A stretch of 19,625 bases of DNA from a candidate division WOR-3 bacterium (GCA_965649055.1 CBFGJG010000039.1:1-19625); one strand, 5' to 3'. Positions 9,823 to 17,980 are shown, counted from the first letter of the stretch. Notes: generated from the sequence alone by a model not told the origin. Translations and numbers: made by a program.

Positions 9823-11457
<1,635 letters not shown>

Positions 11458-11465
11458 CTACCTCC

Positions 11466-11753
11466 TTATTTTTCTTTTTCAATCTTTGCAAGGATATCAT
11501 CTTCGTTCAGTATCAAATATTCTTCACCCTCTATCGTTATCTCGCTCCCTGCATACTTACCAAAGATAATTTTATCACCTTTCTTAACCGGAAGAGGATC
11601 ATCCTTCTCTTTTACATCTGCAACCGCAATAACCTCACCCATCTGGGGTTTTTCCTTTGCGGTGTCAGGTATATAAATAGCACCAACCTTCTTTTCCTCC
11701 TCTTCCATTCTCTTAACAAGAACCCTTCTACCAACAGGTTTAACCTTCACCAT
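11466..11753 (-). CDS. groES: Co-chaperonin GroES
   Basis: KPVGRRVLVK, IYIPDTAKEKPQMGEVIAV, GKYAGSE, EDDILA; RBS AGGAGG. Confidence 0.98.
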   Translation of the reverse strand: MVKVKPVGRRVLVKRMEEEEKKVGAIYIPDTAKEKPQMGEVIAVADVKEKDDPLPVKKGDKIIFGKYAGSEITIEGEEYLILNEDDILAKIEKEK

Positions 11754-11902: not shown

Positions 11903-12571
11903 TTAGTTTGGAAAGAATTGTTCTACGATACCCTTGAGTTCTTCAAATTCCTTATCTAAATAAAGTCTTTCCTTTGTATCGTTTTTTATGTTTTTGTATC
12001 CTCTTGCATTCTGTATTCTGAACCTTTTTGCCCCTTTAATGAGTTCTACTATTTTTAAGATATCCTCTTTATCAACATATTTTGGATGAACTGTTGTTCT
12101 AAACTCATAATCCTTAAAACCTTTCACTATCTCTATGGAGTTTAATATCTTATTTATATCCACCTCTATACCGGAAGCTTCCTTGTATTTTTCTATAGAA
12201 CTTTTTATATCCATCGCTATATAATCAACAAAGGGGAGTATTTTATTCAGCCTTTCGGGGAATGAGCCATTTGTATCTATTTTAACTTTCAATCCAATAT
12301 CCTTTATTTCTTTTGCGAGTGTTATGGTTTCGTCGTAAAGTAATGGTTCTCCACCTGATATCACGATTCCGTCTATGAATCCTTTTCTTTTTTTTATTTC
12401 TATCAATATATCTTTTTTATCAATATCGGGTAATTCTTTTAAGAGTTCGGGAAGAACAAGCTCAGGATTATGGCAGATTGGGCATCTAAAATTACAACCA
12501 CCGATGAATATTATTGAAGAGATAGTATCTGGAAAGTCCAGCAGGGTTAATCCGCTAAACCCCTTTATCAA
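11903..12571 (-). CDS. nrdG: Anaerobic ribonucleotide reductase activating protein (radical SAM)
   Basis: TLLDFPD, GCNFRCPICHNP (CxxxCxxC), ISGGEP, KIDTNGS, YEFRTTV; TTG start with AAAGG upstream; downstream of nrdD. Confidence 0.93.
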   Translation of the reverse strand: MIKGFSGLTLLDFPDTISSIIFIGGCNFRCPICHNPELVLPELLKELPDIDKKDILIEIKKRKGFIDGIVISGGEPLLYDETITLAKEIKDIGLKVKIDTNGSFPERLNKILPFVDYIAMDIKSSIEKYKEASGIEVDINKILNSIEIVKGFKDYEFRTTVHPKYVDKEDILKIVELIKGAKRFRIQNARGYKNIKNDTKERLYLDKEFEELKGIVEQFFPN

Positions 12572-12716
12572 CTTTTAAAACCTTTCTATCTTTAAATTCC
12601 TGTTTTTTCCCTATATTCCAGTTCTGAACAGGCCTAAAATAACCAACAACCCTTGAATATATTTCAGGCTTTACAACAAATACCTTTATTTTTTTATCTT
12701 CTTTAAGTTTTTCCAT
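12555..12716 (-). CDS. Stand-alone glycyl-radical subunit of class III RNR (53 aa: MEKLKEDKKIKVFVVKPEIYSRVVGYFRPVQNWNIGKKQEFKDRKVLKVDKGV)
   Basis: Translated by hand; absent from the ORF track. Carries the NrdD C-terminal signature YSRVVGYFRPV-x2-WN-x-GK-x2-EF-x-DR. SD AGGAG lies 5 nt before the ATG. It overlaps nrdD by 14 nt and nrdG by 17 nt. Confidence 0.88.
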   Translation of the reverse strand: MEKLKEDKKIKVFVVKPEIYSRVVGYFRPVQNWNIGKKQEFKDRKVLKVDKGV

Positions 12717-14814
12717 CTTCACTCCTTTTTAAAATTACACTTATTGTTTCATCCTCTTTGATAAAAGAACCGGCTGGTATTTCATTCAATTGTTCCTCTG
12801 AAATCTCAATTTTCGTTCCATACTTTAAAATGTCTTCCTTTGTATGTTCGAAAGGACAGAATTCCTGTTTACCTTTTAAATATCCATGGACAGGGCATAT
12901 TGAGAAGGTAGGTGTGATACTGAAATAAGGTAATCTGAATCTTGTAACTATCTTCTTTACAAGTTCCCTCACCATCTTCCAGTCTTCTATCTCCTCACCA
13001 AGGAAAAGGTGAACCACGGTTCCACCTGTGAATAAAACCTGAAGGTCGTCCTGTAATTCAAGGAGTTCAAATATATCGTGTTCTTCATTAACAGGTAAAT
13101 GAACCGAATTTGTGTAATAAGGTGCATCAGCTGTTCCCTGTGTATAGATTGAAGTAAATTTTTCCCTGTCTTTCTTTGCAAACCTGTAAGAAACACCTTC
13201 TGCAGGTGTTGCTTCAAGATTATATAGATTTCCTGTTTCCCTCTGGAATTCAAGTATCTCTTCCCTCATCCATTTCAGTATTTTTATTGTCCAGTTTTTA
13301 CCTTCCTTTGTGGATATCGGAAGACCAAGAAAATTCATACACGCTTCATTCATACCTACAATACCTATTGTTGAAAAATGGTTTGACCAGTATTTCCCTG
13401 TTGTTTGTTTTACATTCTCAAGATAAATCTTTGAATACGGATAGAGGTCTTTTTCAGTCAGGTCTTCAACTATCTTCCTTTTTATCTCAAGTGATACCTT
13501 AGCAAGTATCATTAAATGTTTAAGCCTTTCAAAAAACTCGGTTTCTGTATGTGATATGTAAGCAATCCTTGGAATATTAATTGTTACAACACCTACAGAA
13601 CCGGTTTGGACACCTGCACCGAAAAGACTTCCGCTCCTTCTCCTTAATTCTTTCTTGTTAATCGAAAGCCTGCAGCACATACTTGTAATATCCTCAGGCT
13701 TCATATCCGAATTCACATAATTCCCAAAATATGGTATACCATATTTTCCTGTCATCTTCCATATATTCTTGAAAACAGGGTTATCCCATTCAAAATCCTT
13801 CGTGATATTTATAGTCGGGATTGGGAAGGTGAATATTCTTCCAACACCATCACCTTCAAGATAAAGCTCTGCAAGAACATCATTGAAAAGATCCATCTCT
13901 TTCTGGAAATCACCATATTTTTCAGGCATTTCCATTCCACCTATTATAACATTCTTATCCTTCATATATTCAGGAACCTTTAAGTCAAGGGTTATATTCG
14001 TGAAAGGTGTCTGGAAACCAACCCTTGTAGGAACATTGCAGTTAAAAAGAAATTCCTGTAATGCCTGTTTTACCTGACCTCTATCAAGTTTATCATACCT
14101 GATAAATGGCGCAAGGAGTGTGTCAAAATTTGAGAAAGCTTGTGCGCCTGCTGTTTCACCCTGCAATGTATAGAAGAAATTTACAGCTTGTCCAAGTGCA
14201 GTCCTCAGCCTTTTGGGTGGCTTTGAAGTTATTTTCCCCGGAACACCTCCAAACCCTTTCCTTAAAACATCTTCAAGATTCCATCCCACGCAATATGGTG
14301 CAAGCAATCCAAGGTCGTGTATATGTAAATCTGCTTCATCATGTGCCCTTTTTATATCTTCAGGATAAATTCTATTTAACCAGTATCTCGCTGTTATGGA
14401 AGAAGAGATATAAAAATTCATTCCCTGTAATGAATAATTCATATTTGAATTTTCCTGAACCCTCCAATCCCACTTCGTCAAATAATTTTCAATAAGATTT
14501 TCCGCCTCTTCAAGTGTGCTCTTTAAATCCCTTGCCTCGCTTCTTTTCTGTCTATAAATAATATAAGCCTTTGCAACATCAACATAACCTTTTTCCATCA
14601 ATGTTCTTTCAACGATATCCTGGATTTCCTCAACAGATGGAATACTACCTTTCTTAAAAAAACTTCTATGTAATATAATCTCTATCTCTTTTGATATATC
14701 TTCAACAGGTATTATGGCTTCACAGGCTGTTGCTGCCTTCTCAATTGCCTTTTCAATCCTGATTCTGTCATACTCAACTATACTACCATCCCTTTTCCTG
14801 ACATACCTTTCCAT
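12703..14814 (-). CDS. nrdD: Class III (anaerobic) ribonucleoside-triphosphate reductase catalytic subunit, with ATP cone, lacking the glycyl-radical loop
   Basis: ATP cone (VRKRDG...VEEIQDIVERTLM), HIHDL, PYCVGW, GAQAFSNFDT, SMCCRL, YNLEATPAEG, YYTNS, FTGGTVVH, TPTFSICPVHGY; no RVxGY in this ORF; RBS AGGAG. Confidence 0.95.
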   Translation of the reverse strand: MERYVRKRDGSIVEYDRIRIEKAIEKAATACEAIIPVEDISKEIEIILHRSFFKKGSIPSVEEIQDIVERTLMEKGYVDVAKAYIIYRQKRSEARDLKSTLEEAENLIENYLTKWDWRVQENSNMNYSLQGMNFYISSSITARYWLNRIYPEDIKRAHDEADLHIHDLGLLAPYCVGWNLEDVLRKGFGGVPGKITSKPPKRLRTALGQAVNFFYTLQGETAGAQAFSNFDTLLAPFIRYDKLDRGQVKQALQEFLFNCNVPTRVGFQTPFTNITLDLKVPEYMKDKNVIIGGMEMPEKYGDFQKEMDLFNDVLAELYLEGDGVGRIFTFPIPTINITKDFEWDNPVFKNIWKMTGKYGIPYFGNYVNSDMKPEDITSMCCRLSINKKELRRRSGSLFGAGVQTGSVGVVTINIPRIAYISHTETEFFERLKHLMILAKVSLEIKRKIVEDLTEKDLYPYSKIYLENVKQTTGKYWSNHFSTIGIVGMNEACMNFLGLPISTKEGKNWTIKILKWMREEILEFQRETGNLYNLEATPAEGVSYRFAKKDREKFTSIYTQGTADAPYYTNSVHLPVNEEHDIFELLELQDDLQVLFTGGTVVHLFLGEEIEDWKMVRELVKKIVTRFRLPYFSITPTFSICPVHGYLKGKQEFCPFEHTKEDILKYGTKIEISEEQLNEIPAGSFIKEDETISVILKRSEDGKT

Positions 14815-14867: not shown

Positions 14868-14913
14868 ATACTATATATTGTATTTTTTTAAAAAAAGATA
14901 CTATATATTGTAT
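14868..14913. promoter_or_regulatory. Tandem NrdR boxes
   Basis: Two identical near-palindromic 16-mers ATACTATATATTGTAT (14868-14883, 14898-14913), 30 bp apart, matching the NrdR consensus acaCwAtATaTwGtgt, directly upstream of nrdD. Confidence 0.88.
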
Positions 14914-15893
14914 TATTTATGAGACCAGAGACCCATATTTTCCCTAACAATCTGCATTGTTTTTCTTGTCTCTTCTATTGCTTTTTCTTTCCCTTTATTA
15001 AGAATTTTTTCTATATCCCATTTTTCTACTTCTTTTCTTTTCTTCCTTATTGGTTCAAGAAAATCGTTGAGTATTGAAGAAATTTCTTTTTTACACTGGA
15101 CGCAACCTATTTTTCCTTCAATGCATGCTTTTTCTCTTTCAGTGAACATTTCTTTATTTAATATCTTAAGATATGCAAATGGAACGCATCCTTCCGGGTG
15201 TCCCGGATCATTCTTCTTTATTTTCAACGGGTCCGTGAATGCTTCAAAGATCTTTTTATCAACATCTTCCCTTGAATCTGAAATAAGTATTGTATTACCA
15301 AGGGATTTAGACATCCTTCTTCCATCAAGCCCCGGAACCCTTTTTGCTTCTGTAAGTATTCCTTCTGGTTCAGGGAATACTTCACCATAAAGATAATTAA
15401 ATCTTCTTGCTATCTCCCTTGCAAGTTCTATATGTGGAAGCTGGTCTTCGCCAACAGGAACCTTGTTTGCCCTGTATATTAAGATATCAGCGGCTTGAAG
15501 GACAGGGTATCCAAGAAGTCCGAAGGACAGGTTTTCTCCTATTGACAAATCCCTAATCATATCCTTCAAAGTTGGGTTTCTCTGTAATCTCTGGACTGTA
15601 ACAAGCATTGAAAATAAAAGATAAAGTTCGGCATGTTCCTTCACATCAGACTGGACAAAAACAGTTGATTTTTCAGGGTCTATTCCACAGGCAAACCAGT
15701 CAATAACAGTTTCCTTAATCAATCCTTTAAGGTTTTTACTGTTTTCTGGCTTTGTCGTTAGCGTATGCCAGTCTGCTACTTCAAAAAAGCAGATGTTGTT
15801 ATTTTGTAATCTAACCCAATTTTCAATAGCACCAAAGAAATTACCTATATGAACCCTGCCTGTTGGTCTTAATCCGCTCAATATTTTATCCAT
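14913..15893 (-). CDS. trpS: Tryptophan--tRNA ligase
   Basis: SGLRPTGRVHIGN (HIGH motif), GYPVLQAADIL, VPVGEDQLPHIELAREIARRFN, RMSKSLGN (KMSKS variant); RBS GGAGG. Confidence 0.97.
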   Translation of the reverse strand: MDKILSGLRPTGRVHIGNFFGAIENWVRLQNNNICFFEVADWHTLTTKPENSKNLKGLIKETVIDWFACGIDPEKSTVFVQSDVKEHAELYLLFSMLVTVQRLQRNPTLKDMIRDLSIGENLSFGLLGYPVLQAADILIYRANKVPVGEDQLPHIELAREIARRFNYLYGEVFPEPEGILTEAKRVPGLDGRRMSKSLGNTILISDSREDVDKKIFEAFTDPLKIKKNDPGHPEGCVPFAYLKILNKEMFTEREKACIEGKIGCVQCKKEISSILNDFLEPIRKKRKEVEKWDIEKILNKGKEKAIEETRKTMQIVRENMGLWSHK

Positions 15894-15907: not shown

Positions 15908-17980
15908 TCATACAAAGAAATCTTTCACATTAAGACTGAATTCATCTATTAATTTATTCAGATTTTCAATCTCACCCAATACCCGCTTTATAAATGTTTC
16001 AAATTCACTTATTGTATTCAGATTACTTTTTATCTGAATAATAAGTGATGTTATCTTTTCCCCACTTTCTTTATTAAGGGAAACTGATTTTGTTATCTCA
16101 TGTTCTATCATATCTGTATTTCTTTTAAGACTCTCTATCATCTTTATATTTTTTTCCATTGAATTTTTAATCTCATTAAGATTATTTGAAACAAATGAAA
16201 GGTAATTCTCAAGTGATTCAGTGAATTTTTGATAAAGGCTCATCTTATCTTTTTTTGCCTCTACACTATCCACTATAAAAGAAAATCTTTTTGAATAATT
16301 ATCAAGTATATCTTTGGCTTTTTCAATCAGTTCAATTGTGTTTGCTGAAAGAGTTCCAATTTCCTGTGCTATCACAGAAAATCCCCTGCCAACATCTCCA
16401 ACCCTTGCTGCTTCAATGCTTGCATTTATTGCAAGAAGGCTCGTATCATCTGAAAATTCAACTATGGAATCAATGATGTTTTTAAAATCATATATGCTGT
16501 CCTGAATTTCCCTTATAGAATTGCTTATTACTTTAAGAAATTCGGTCATATCGGTTATGAGATTTTCATGTTCTTTTATATCTTTGGATTTATTCTCTAC
16601 CTCTCTATTAATCTCGTTTATATTATTTAATAATTTCCTTATTTCTTCTATTAATCTTTCGTTTGTCCCTTTTATAGATACAATGCTGTTTTCAAAAATC
16701 CCAAAAGAATCTACCATTTTACCTGTTTCAGTGTGAACTATTGTGGCACTTTTCACATTTTCATTAATCTTTGTAATGAATTCATTAATTGTTCTATCTG
16801 TTTCTTCGGTTCCCTTCTTTATATTTTTTGAAAGGCGTAGAAGTGGTAGAAGTTTCATATGTGTATTTATTATCCTTGACAATTCCGGAACAAACATACT
16901 TCCAAGTATTATATCGTTTTCATCAAATCCATTAGGTTCCTTGTGCTCAAAGTCAAGGACACCCAAAGGTTCATTGTTATAAAATAATGGTATACACAAT
17001 TCACATCTTGAGACTGAATCCACAGCAACAAAATCTTTGTCTTTTTTCACATCCCTTACAAGAACAGGCTCCTTTGATGTTATTGCCCTCCAAGATACAC
17101 CTTTTCCCAGTGGGGTATAGAAGTCGTAATCAAATCCTCTTATTGTGTTATAAAGGACATGCATCTTTTCATCCTTTATTATTCCAAAATTTATGATTGT
17201 CCAGTCTATATATTTTTTTGATTCTTCAATAACGAAATTAATACCATCTTTAAGTGAGAGTTTTGACATCCTGTTTGAGATATCTATTGCCACTTTGTAA
17301 ATTAGTCCTTCAACTGATAATTTTAATATATAATTCAGAATAATAATTAATATCGTTGTAAGGATAAGAAAAATATAAAAAGAAGAGAATTTTATCAGGT
17401 AGAAGAAAAAATAAGTGTAAATTGCACCAAAGAAAAACAGAAAGATATTGTAAAATACAAAATGGAATATATGAAAAATATTAATTTTTCTGTTAATTGT
17501 ATTAGGAATTATTGATGAAACAAGAAAGAATACAAAAAAAGATATTGTTGATATAGCAAGATTATTTTTTGTAAAAGCATCCTTAAAAAAGAAGAAAGAA
17601 GAAAGAAGAAATGGAACAGAATGTATCAAACCATTAAGTATAGACCTTTCTTTATCTTTTGTGATTATAAGACGCCCGATAAAACCTGCAAAAAATATAA
17701 TAATACCCGAGATTACAGGGTTTAAAATAAATAATAATGGAAGTGAGAAAAAAGGAACAAACGATACCGGTAATCTAAACAAGCTTATTGATGAGAATGA
17801 AGCAATTGTTACGAATAAGTATGGCAATAAAAGTTCTGTAAATAAGATTATTTTATTATACTCAATAATATTTAGAATTTTTAAAAGATAAGGTGAGAAA
17901 AAATCCTGATAAATTACAAAATTTAAAGAACACAGGATAATAAATATTATTCCGTAAGCTATATTCAATTTTTTTATCAT
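15908..17980 (-). CDS. Multi-pass membrane sensor with GAF domain and methyl-accepting chemotaxis (MCP)-like signalling domain
   Basis: About 220 hydrophobic N-terminal residues; GAF signature GKGVSWRAITSKEPVLVRDV...ELCIPL...LGVLDF...FDEND; coiled coil with MCP tip TSLLAINASIEAARVGDVGRGFSVIAQEI. Confidence 0.82.
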   Translation of the reverse strand: MIKKLNIAYGIIFIILCSLNFVIYQDFFSPYLLKILNIIEYNKIILFTELLLPYLFVTIASFSSISLFRLPVSFVPFFSLPLLFILNPVISGIIIFFAGFIGRLIITKDKERSILNGLIHSVPFLLSSFFFFKDAFTKNNLAISTISFFVFFLVSSIIPNTINRKINIFHIFHFVFYNIFLFFFGAIYTYFFFYLIKFSSFYIFLILTTILIIILNYILKLSVEGLIYKVAIDISNRMSKLSLKDGINFVIEESKKYIDWTIINFGIIKDEKMHVLYNTIRGFDYDFYTPLGKGVSWRAITSKEPVLVRDVKKDKDFVAVDSVSRCELCIPLFYNNEPLGVLDFEHKEPNGFDENDIILGSMFVPELSRIINTHMKLLPLLRLSKNIKKGTEETDRTINEFITKINENVKSATIVHTETGKMVDSFGIFENSIVSIKGTNERLIEEIRKLLNNINEINREVENKSKDIKEHENLITDMTEFLKVISNSIREIQDSIYDFKNIIDSIVEFSDDTSLLAINASIEAARVGDVGRGFSVIAQEIGTLSANTIELIEKAKDILDNYSKRFSFIVDSVEAKKDKMSLYQKFTESLENYLSFVSNNLNEIKNSMEKNIKMIESLKRNTDMIEHEITKSVSLNKESGEKITSLIIQIKSNLNTISEFETFIKRVLGEIENLNKLIDEFSLNVKDFFV

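Follow-up and report, generated by a model that had tools for sequence, protein, structure and literature searches.

The window analyzed in this study, a stretch of 19,625 nucleotides from a candidate division WOR-3 bacterium, very likely encodes a working class III ribonucleotide reductase (RNR) made of two polypeptides together with its activase, the genes being arranged in the order nrdD, small gene, nrdG in one overlapping operon on the minus strand. The glycyl-radical motif is present in this system, but on a separate 53-aa chain and not on the NrdD polypeptide. This is a variant of class III RNR which is apparently undescribed. Judged from the sequence comparisons presented below, the two-chain enzyme is real, conserved and probably essential, and it appears to be the only RNR of the organism. 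The split type typifies a large clade which is present in Thermodesulfobacteriota, Fermentibacterota, TA06/WOR-3-like bacteria, Chloroflexota, Aquificota, Lentisphaerota, Verrucomicrobiota, Planctomycetota, Elusimicrobiota, Margulisiibacteriota, and some archaea.

Gene arrangement and junctions

The gene nrdD (12703..14814, minus strand), encoding the large (catalytic) chain, is an ORF of 703 aa which ends with ...KRSEDGKT followed by the stop codon TAA at 12705-12703. The small gene (12555..12716, minus strand) encodes a glycyl-radical protein of 53 aa, including EIYSRVVGYFRPVQNWNIGKKQEFKDR, plus a stop codon, and is supported by a match to PF13597, by homologues, and by selection. The third gene, nrdG (11903..12571, minus strand), encodes a radical-SAM activase of 222 aa starting from TTG 12571, as identified by TIGR02495 and Radical_SAM.

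A sequence-only reading had described this junction before, and its details were all recovered when the DNA was read again. nrdD (14814..12703) stops at 12703 without a glycyl-radical motif, the pattern R-[VITC]-[VITCS]-G-Y being absent from the last 120 residues of the 703-aa chain. The 53-aa ORF (12716->12555) is in the +1 frame relative to nrdD and starts with ATG at 12716, with an in-frame GTG at 12722. It has its own Shine-Dalgarno sequence (SD), AGGAG (12722..12726, minus strand), which lies within the nrdD end with a spacing of 5 nt to the ATG. Both neighbors are overlapped, namely the nrdD end by 14 nt (12703..12716, minus strand) and nrdG by 17 nt at its TTG start. Also, a TAA in the frame of the small ORF (12729..12731, minus strand; read directly) is the fifth codon upstream of its ATG. 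Any event fusing the two ORFs must therefore fall between this codon and 12703. The overlapping layout of nrdD and the small ORF is typical of translational coupling, and on this ground the small ORF is probably coupled to the end of nrdD.

The neighbors of the operon, all on the minus strand, were named from translation only. Downstream lie groES-groEL (9823-11753), and upstream a tryptophanyl-tRNA synthetase-like ORF of 326 aa (14913-15893) and a multi-pass membrane protein of 690 aa (15908-17980).

Domains of the two chains and the activase

The large chain starts with an ATP-cone domain (residues 4-93; 14536..14805, minus strand; PF03477, E 9.9e-23, above the cut-off), which is an allosteric on/off module. 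The barrel (residues 121-655; 12850..14454, minus strand) covers positions 1-526 of the 562 positions of the Pfam profile NRDD. With this profile (PF13597) the large chain scored 583.7 bits (cut-off 26.2; E 5.5e-175), and with NCBIfam NF006126 it scored 984.2 bits (cut-off 548). The NRDD profile is thereby split end to end, with positions 1-526 in the large ORF and positions 534-560 in the small ORF. With 34 bits, the small ORF alone exceeded the Pfam cut-off (26.2), and since the arrangement also recurs in relatives, this is far beyond chance. In the NCBIfam scan, the peptide matched just the last ~30 positions of four full-length NrdD models, far below their cut-offs, and it matched no model made for the small protein alone. 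NrdG scored 183.4 bits with TIGR02495 (NrdG2; cut-off 131.15).

Six residues (C640, P641, H643, C653, P654, and H657) were invariant in 38 split-type large chains. They form a putative metal site, C640-P-x-H643 ... C653-P-x-x-H657 (12844..12897, minus strand), whose second pair is C-x3-H (C-P-x-x-H) in the split type versus C-x2-C (C-P-x-C-G) in fused relatives. H657 is followed by a split-specific C-terminal tail of 46 residues (658-703; 12706..12843, minus strand), and the canonical fused forms with C-P-x-C-G have no such tail. Related tails were seen in 108 homologues without the glycine motif, and from the contacts in the complex model described below, the tail is proposed to be a docking element for the small chain. 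Also invariant in the split-type large chains were C380 and C381, which we infer to be placed in the finger loop by analogy to the T. maritima type as described in section 2.5 of PMC9669993.

In the small chain, the conserved core extends from E18 to R44 (12585..12665, minus strand) and contains the codon GGT of the radical Gly25 (12642-12644, minus strand). Its invariant residues are E18, Y20, S21, R22, V24, G25, Y26, R28, P29, W33, N34, G36, K37, E40, and R44, and the core is under purifying selection as detailed below.

Relatives and distribution

The small protein was searched for in 41 genomes (the source genome and 40 relatives), 29 of which had a match. In the same-family, same-order and same-class genomes with a match, it lay in an open frame of 55-80 aa, except for one fused class-level genome (G024), and such a frame was also found in two same-phylum genomes. 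In seven more distant genomes (G024, G026, G028, G032, G034, G038, and G040) the match lay within a frame of 692-853 aa. Dissection of 30 loci revealed 17 split behind a truncated nrdD, seven fused, five behind an unrelated gene, and one at a contig end. Relatives with a truncated nrdD followed by a small ORF, as the earlier reading had asked for, thus exist, and a continuous nrdD is not universal among the relatives.

In a collection of 5.8 billion proteins, 256 proteins of 29-93 aa matched the peptide (E <= 0.001). Of these short matches 120 were listed, and all but one of the listed (119/120) start with Met. Their source names are 'hypothetical protein' or 'anaerobic ribonucleoside-triphosphate reductase', just as the sequence-only reading had expected of short proteins with this motif. 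When the C-terminal region of NrdD was used as the query, 108 of the best 120 homologues had no glycine motif and 12 were fused to it through a short linker; one close NrdD homologue carries the label candidate division WOR-3.

Scanning one genome per prokaryotic species resulted in 592 confirmed stretches, of which the best 80 were kept. These comprised 32 loci split beside nrdD, 38 fused loci, and 10 short ORFs with no nrdD seen upstream; as the 80 loci were chosen as the most query-like, these counts give no estimate of prevalence. Split carriers included the isolate Thermodesulfatator autotrophicus S606, Thermodesulfobacterium, Caldimicrobium, Fermentibacteria, Aegiribacteria, TA06, Anaerolineae, Aquificales, Victivallaceae/Lentisphaeria, Verrucomicrobia, Thermoguttaceae, Elusimicrobia, Margulisiibacteriota, and Geoalkalibacter, as well as the archaeal Bilamarchaeaceae and Nanoarchaeia.

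A quick maximum-likelihood tree was calculated from the 420 residues before the glycine-loop region, using 66 rows (31 split, 35 fused). It leaves out 15 of the 80 loci, which had no 420-aa body, and one row (L105) forms a very long branch. A minimum of nine changes between split and fused was counted on the tree, at least four of them forced by branches with SH-aLRT >= 95. The sequence of the window falls into a supported clade (97) of 17 rows, of which 15 are split and two fused. Since the tree is unrooted, fission and fusion are indistinguishable.

The split is found in more than one form. In a second architecture (L045, L048, L068, L104, and L116 from Lentisphaerota/Verrucomicrobiota; L052 from Thermoguttaceae), the large chain terminates immediately behind C-P-L-E, and M-A-K-C-G are the first residues of the small chain, so that one presumed metal-binding Cys would be located on the small chain. 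A third architecture was observed at two loci from Elusimicrobiota (L090 and L101), where both Cys pairs are on the large chain, which has a heptad-like helical end, and where the small chain has a matching helix-like stretch ahead of the glycine loop. From their sequence, these helices could be a coiled-coil tether. Separately, two small glycyl-radical proteins of 67-78 aa (P0092 and P0112) were found to have a complete CxxC...CxxC ribbon of their own; their PHROGs matches were restricted to the C-terminal ends of phage NrdD families, and the source of P0092 names it 'viral metagenome'.

Lengths of 1005-1183 aa and intein or homing-endonuclease domains (PF14528, PF14890) are found in many split-type large chains (P0124, P0129, P0142, and others), and the nrdD of a same-family genome (G002:C5:34799-38991) is an open frame of 1471 aa in which NRDD is matched at three separate places. 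A split gene and inteins therefore occur together. Among fused NrdD proteins, some have the split-type C-P-x-x-H pair (L041 from Caldisericia, P0167, P0181, and others). In these fused chains, and in L087 and L117 from Brevinematia, the linker resembles the tail plus the N-terminus of the peptide, and L117 has an internal Met exactly where the small gene would begin. By their sequence, fused chains with such a split-like linker look like intermediates or re-fusions.

Integrity of the junction

A one-base deletion in either A5 run within 12729-12703 would fuse the two frames, and the source is a metagenome-type assembly of 85 contigs. We therefore considered that a homopolymer indel was introduced at the junction by sequencing or assembly, or that nrdD is a pseudogene broken not long ago, of which the small ORF is a remnant. 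Six public runs contained related sequence, all of them hot-spring metagenomes kept as contigs and none of them an RNA run. In one run (X1), a contig of 249 nt covers 12601-12849 with 0 differences and 0 gaps; this is a contig and not raw reads, and it may originate from the source sample itself. In a run from another study (X2), a contig of 1472 nt covers 11910-13380 and is ~8% diverged (120 differences), with 0 gaps, so the junction is kept in an independent, diverged sequence. The search for an indel over the junction, which the sequence-only reading had named as a check, found none in contigs of two studies, at contig level, where minority variants are not visible. Also speaking against an indel or pseudogene, different families, orders, and phyla share the layout. 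The pseudogene variant is further opposed by strong purifying selection on the small gene and by the fact that the enzyme is the sole RNR found in the genome. For the 27-codon core, compared between 23 loci (253 pairs), the median pN was 0.115 vs. a median pS of 0.871; changes at synonymous sites come close to saturation, the protein being kept, and by these sequence data the core is under strong purifying selection. Taken together, we regard an indel or a broken gene as extremely improbable.

A programmed +1 frameshift or a stop read-through would yield one fused NrdD, with the small gene being a mere 3' part of it. At the locus of the window, 26 nt of open sequence with an A5 run are common to both frames (12729-12703), and in six of 17 relatives the frames coincide with one stop between them. 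However, there is no shared shift site. In the 17 nrdD-adjacent small ORFs, the relative frame was +0 with an intervening stop in six cases, +1 in six, and +2 in five, and the small open frame overlapped the nrdD stop by -14 to +55 nt. At two of the loci (L006 and L030) the small-frame stop comes after the nrdD stop, and no frameshift of any kind can join these ORFs. Furthermore, all 17 have an AGGAG-like SD at a correct spacing of 3-10 nt and a start codon (ATG, TTG or GTG), and the small gene is also found on its own, downstream of unrelated genes. The six small copies not seen beside nrdD likewise all have an AGGAG-like motif and a start, the spacing in all 23 being 3-11 nt. The predicted small products in the relatives are 52-62 aa long. 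A fused product is thus highly improbable as the general explanation, while at the six same-frame loci stop-codon read-through may, as far as their sequences go, still give a fused chain. Selenocysteine read-through was a separate candidate, considered for the small proteins of the 'MAKCG' type, and was set aside for the locus of the window in view of its TAA stop and the differing frames.

The variety of frames, the SDs, the selection, and the contigs together exclude that the split is mainly explained by an indel artifact, by a programmed frameshift which is conserved, or by the decay of a pseudogene. The claim of a genuine split, with the glycyl-radical loop as a gene of its own between nrdD and nrdG, is accordingly backed by the tests at sequence level.

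RNR inventory of the genome

The source genome (93.8% complete, 85 contigs) contains one NRDD body and one small ORF. Neither a class I/II large subunit (PF02867) nor a second NRDD body was found in this 93.8%-complete genome, and the control genomes gave the expected results; another RNR could be located in the missing part. A single NRDD body in combination with no PF02867 protein was likewise found in G031 (100% complete), in G037 (99%), and in 13 of 15 genomes of the sister genus g4. The same-family relatives G001-G003 additionally carry a PF02867 protein, so that several genomes, but not all, have the split enzyme as the only RNR found. For the earlier proposal of an obligate three-component RNR, the lack of a second NrdD body or class I/II large subunit among the proteins found is indirect support. 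Lacking a glycine loop of its own, the large chain depends on the small chain, which is obligatory and a primary part rather than a spare one.

Model of the complex and proposed mechanism

Modeling of NrdD with the peptide had been suggested with the sequence-only reading. We used residues 101-703 of the large chain (38-row alignment) and the peptide (33-row alignment) as input. The peptide was placed on the large chain with ipSAE values of 0.89, 0.89, and 0.90, while the best of three controls had 0.00. The partner pLDDT was 78, and the 202-207 contacts agreed between runs to >=95%. Among solved complexes, 116 of 157 attain the mark applied to such models, compared with 2 of 215 mismatched pairs, a calibration which is rough with custom alignments. 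The surest contacts were between residues 17-21 of the peptide and residues 636-640 of the large chain, and residues 661-690 of the tail touch the peptide in the model. Since structures of one-chain NrdD have been solved (8p23, 4coi/4u3e, 1h78), the passing of the model may merely mirror this likeness. In these terms, the model shows that the pieces can be arranged as the two ends of a normal NrdD, which is likeness and not binding.

In the proposed mechanism, ATP-cone, catalytic barrel, and a putative Cys/His metal site would all come from the 703-aa chain. The radical-glycine loop with Gly25 would be brought in by the 53-aa chain, whose translation starts at an ATG of its own with its own SD upstream. 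For docking, a strand of the small chain (~9-21) would pair with the strand T-P-T-F-S-I-C (636-640) on the large chain, and the split-specific tail (658-703) would hold the docked small chain. NrdG would then take a hydrogen from Gly25, thereby forming the glycyl radical, which in turn would generate a thiyl radical on a barrel cysteine, like in one-chain NrdD. Oxygen cleaves a glycyl-radical chain at the radical glycine. In the two-chain enzyme, such damage would be likely to destroy just the 53-aa piece, so that a fresh copy could re-arm the large chain.

Extra copies of the small gene and the role of the split

Two or more small genes together with only one large body were present in 13 of 15 genomes of the sister genus g4. 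At the four g4 loci examined for this type, the extra, unlinked copy lies between a rhodanese gene and an MBL+rhodanese gene (L033-L036; G008:C9, G017:C1, G011:C8, and G015:C45). Another unlinked small gene lies between genes for a Cys/Met PLP enzyme and NifS-NifU (L037; G004:C6), and a further one behind a 4Fe-4S protein gene (L039; G019:C9). Judged from gene context, these sulfur and Fe-S neighborhoods could reflect co-regulation with repair after oxygen stress. On a Lentisphaeria chromosome (CP091727; L072:2941-3520), three tandem small genes with identical 41-aa cores are located between nrdD and nrdG. Upstream of them, the long-read assembly shows nrdD as three overlapping ORFs, possibly as a result of assembly indels. 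As a separate observation, G019 has a third, more divergent small copy of 77 aa beside a PD-(D/E)XK nuclease gene and ORFs with no assignment on a contig of 3157 nt, the whole of which (L038; G019:C40) may be a mobile element or phage fragment. In PHROGs, no family matched this 77-aa copy or the peptide of the window, and we therefore make no claim of phage identity for L038.

Two readings of the split have to be weighed. According to the first, the small chain would be a consumable radical cartridge: an intact 80-kDa body would be re-armed with a freshly made, NrdG-activated copy, the arrangement would have evolved repeatedly in oxygen-pulsed lineages, where extra cartridge genes are kept, and some of these would be wired into sulfur-transfer and Fe-S repair operons. 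The gene counts in other lineages fit a replaceable part. We put this forward tentatively, as a reading which may well turn out to be wrong.

According to the second, the split would be functional but selectively neutral, with the two chains assembled once during translation and remaining together permanently, as in NrdJa/NrdJb, and with no spare-part role. Overlapping, coupled genes favor a 1:1 synthesis, the source genome has a single small gene, the modeled interface with its 202-207 contacts is large and would suggest tight binding, and a split class II RNR is an accepted precedent (PMC4520616 and PMC9669993). However, the repeated changes between split and fused (at least nine by the fewest count, with four or more forced by well-supported branches), the surplus of small over large genes in 13 of 15 g4 genomes, and the tandem triplication at one Lentisphaeria locus are not predicted by neutral fission. 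A neutral, permanent assembly is conceivable, somewhat on the improbable side.

Implications

The two-chain RNR offers a natural system for asking how the activase reaches a buried glycine loop and whether the radical-bearing piece is exchangeable. It may also explain the economy of strict anaerobes after oxygen exposure. Annotation pipelines built for a single chain will report a complete body and call its partner of 41-93 aa hypothetical, and RNR surveys which filter by length will overlook the small partner. If the cartridge reading is true, this would be the first spare-part system of a glycyl-radical enzyme other than pyruvate formate-lyase, and here no part besides the spare would exist.

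Comparison with known systems

In the literature, class III RNR is a homodimer of a single chain with its own glycyl radical (Table 1 of PMC2795772; introduction of PMC4520616), is given as alpha2 with the glycine in alpha (PMC2795772), and has its glycyl-radical domain at the C-terminus according to PMC9669993, which also treats the split class II enzyme. A search of open-access full texts and bioRxiv found no description of a class III RNR with the glycine loop on a separate protein, and the only split RNR of cellular life found in this literature was the class II NrdJa/NrdJb.

With one-chain NrdD/NrdG, the system shares the ATP-cone, the barrel, a putative Cys/His metal site, the glycyl-radical motif, and the adjacent activase in the same order. 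The nearest solved one-chain NrdD proteins by sequence are those of Prevotella copri (8p23), Thermotoga maritima (4coi/4u3e), and phage T4 (1h78). In contrast to these, the last ~30 profile positions with the radical glycine are found here on the separate 53-aa protein, and the large chain has the C-P-x-x-H pair and the 46-residue tail, whereas canonical forms have C-P-x-C-G and are tail-less.

GrcA/YfiD is the autonomous glycyl-radical 'spare part' of pyruvate formate-lyase (PFL). Like the small chain, it is a small free-standing glycyl-radical-loop protein which serves a barrel enzyme with a radical-SAM activase. However, its parent enzyme keeps a glycine domain of its own, for which the small protein substitutes once oxygen has cleaved it, and the large chain here has none. 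None of the 33 small chains, nor the peptide of the window, matched PF01228 (Gly_radical) at E <= 0.01, and all 33 matched the NRDD C-terminus; the small chain is therefore not homologous to GrcA/YfiD at the family level. In section 5.3 of a review from June 2026 (PMC13450708), formate lyases are given as the sole class of glycyl-radical enzymes with known spare-part proteins.

NrdJa/NrdJb from Pseudomonas aeruginosa and other Proteobacteria is also an RNR whose catalytic chain is encoded by two adjacent genes, divided near a C-terminal module. It differs in being a B12-dependent class II enzyme (PF02867), a family for which no member was found in the source genome, and NrdJb has 229 residues and bears the reducing cysteines instead of the radical. 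The two systems are alike in gene architecture alone.

Finally, phage nrdD genes interrupted by introns, inteins, and unexplained breaks are described in the section of PMC3653736 dealing with them, and there, too, nrdD occupies more than one ORF. These phage breaks lie within the gene body and are spliced or unexplained, whereas the system described here has a clean junction of stop codon, SD, and start codon just before the glycine loop, which is conserved across cellular phyla.
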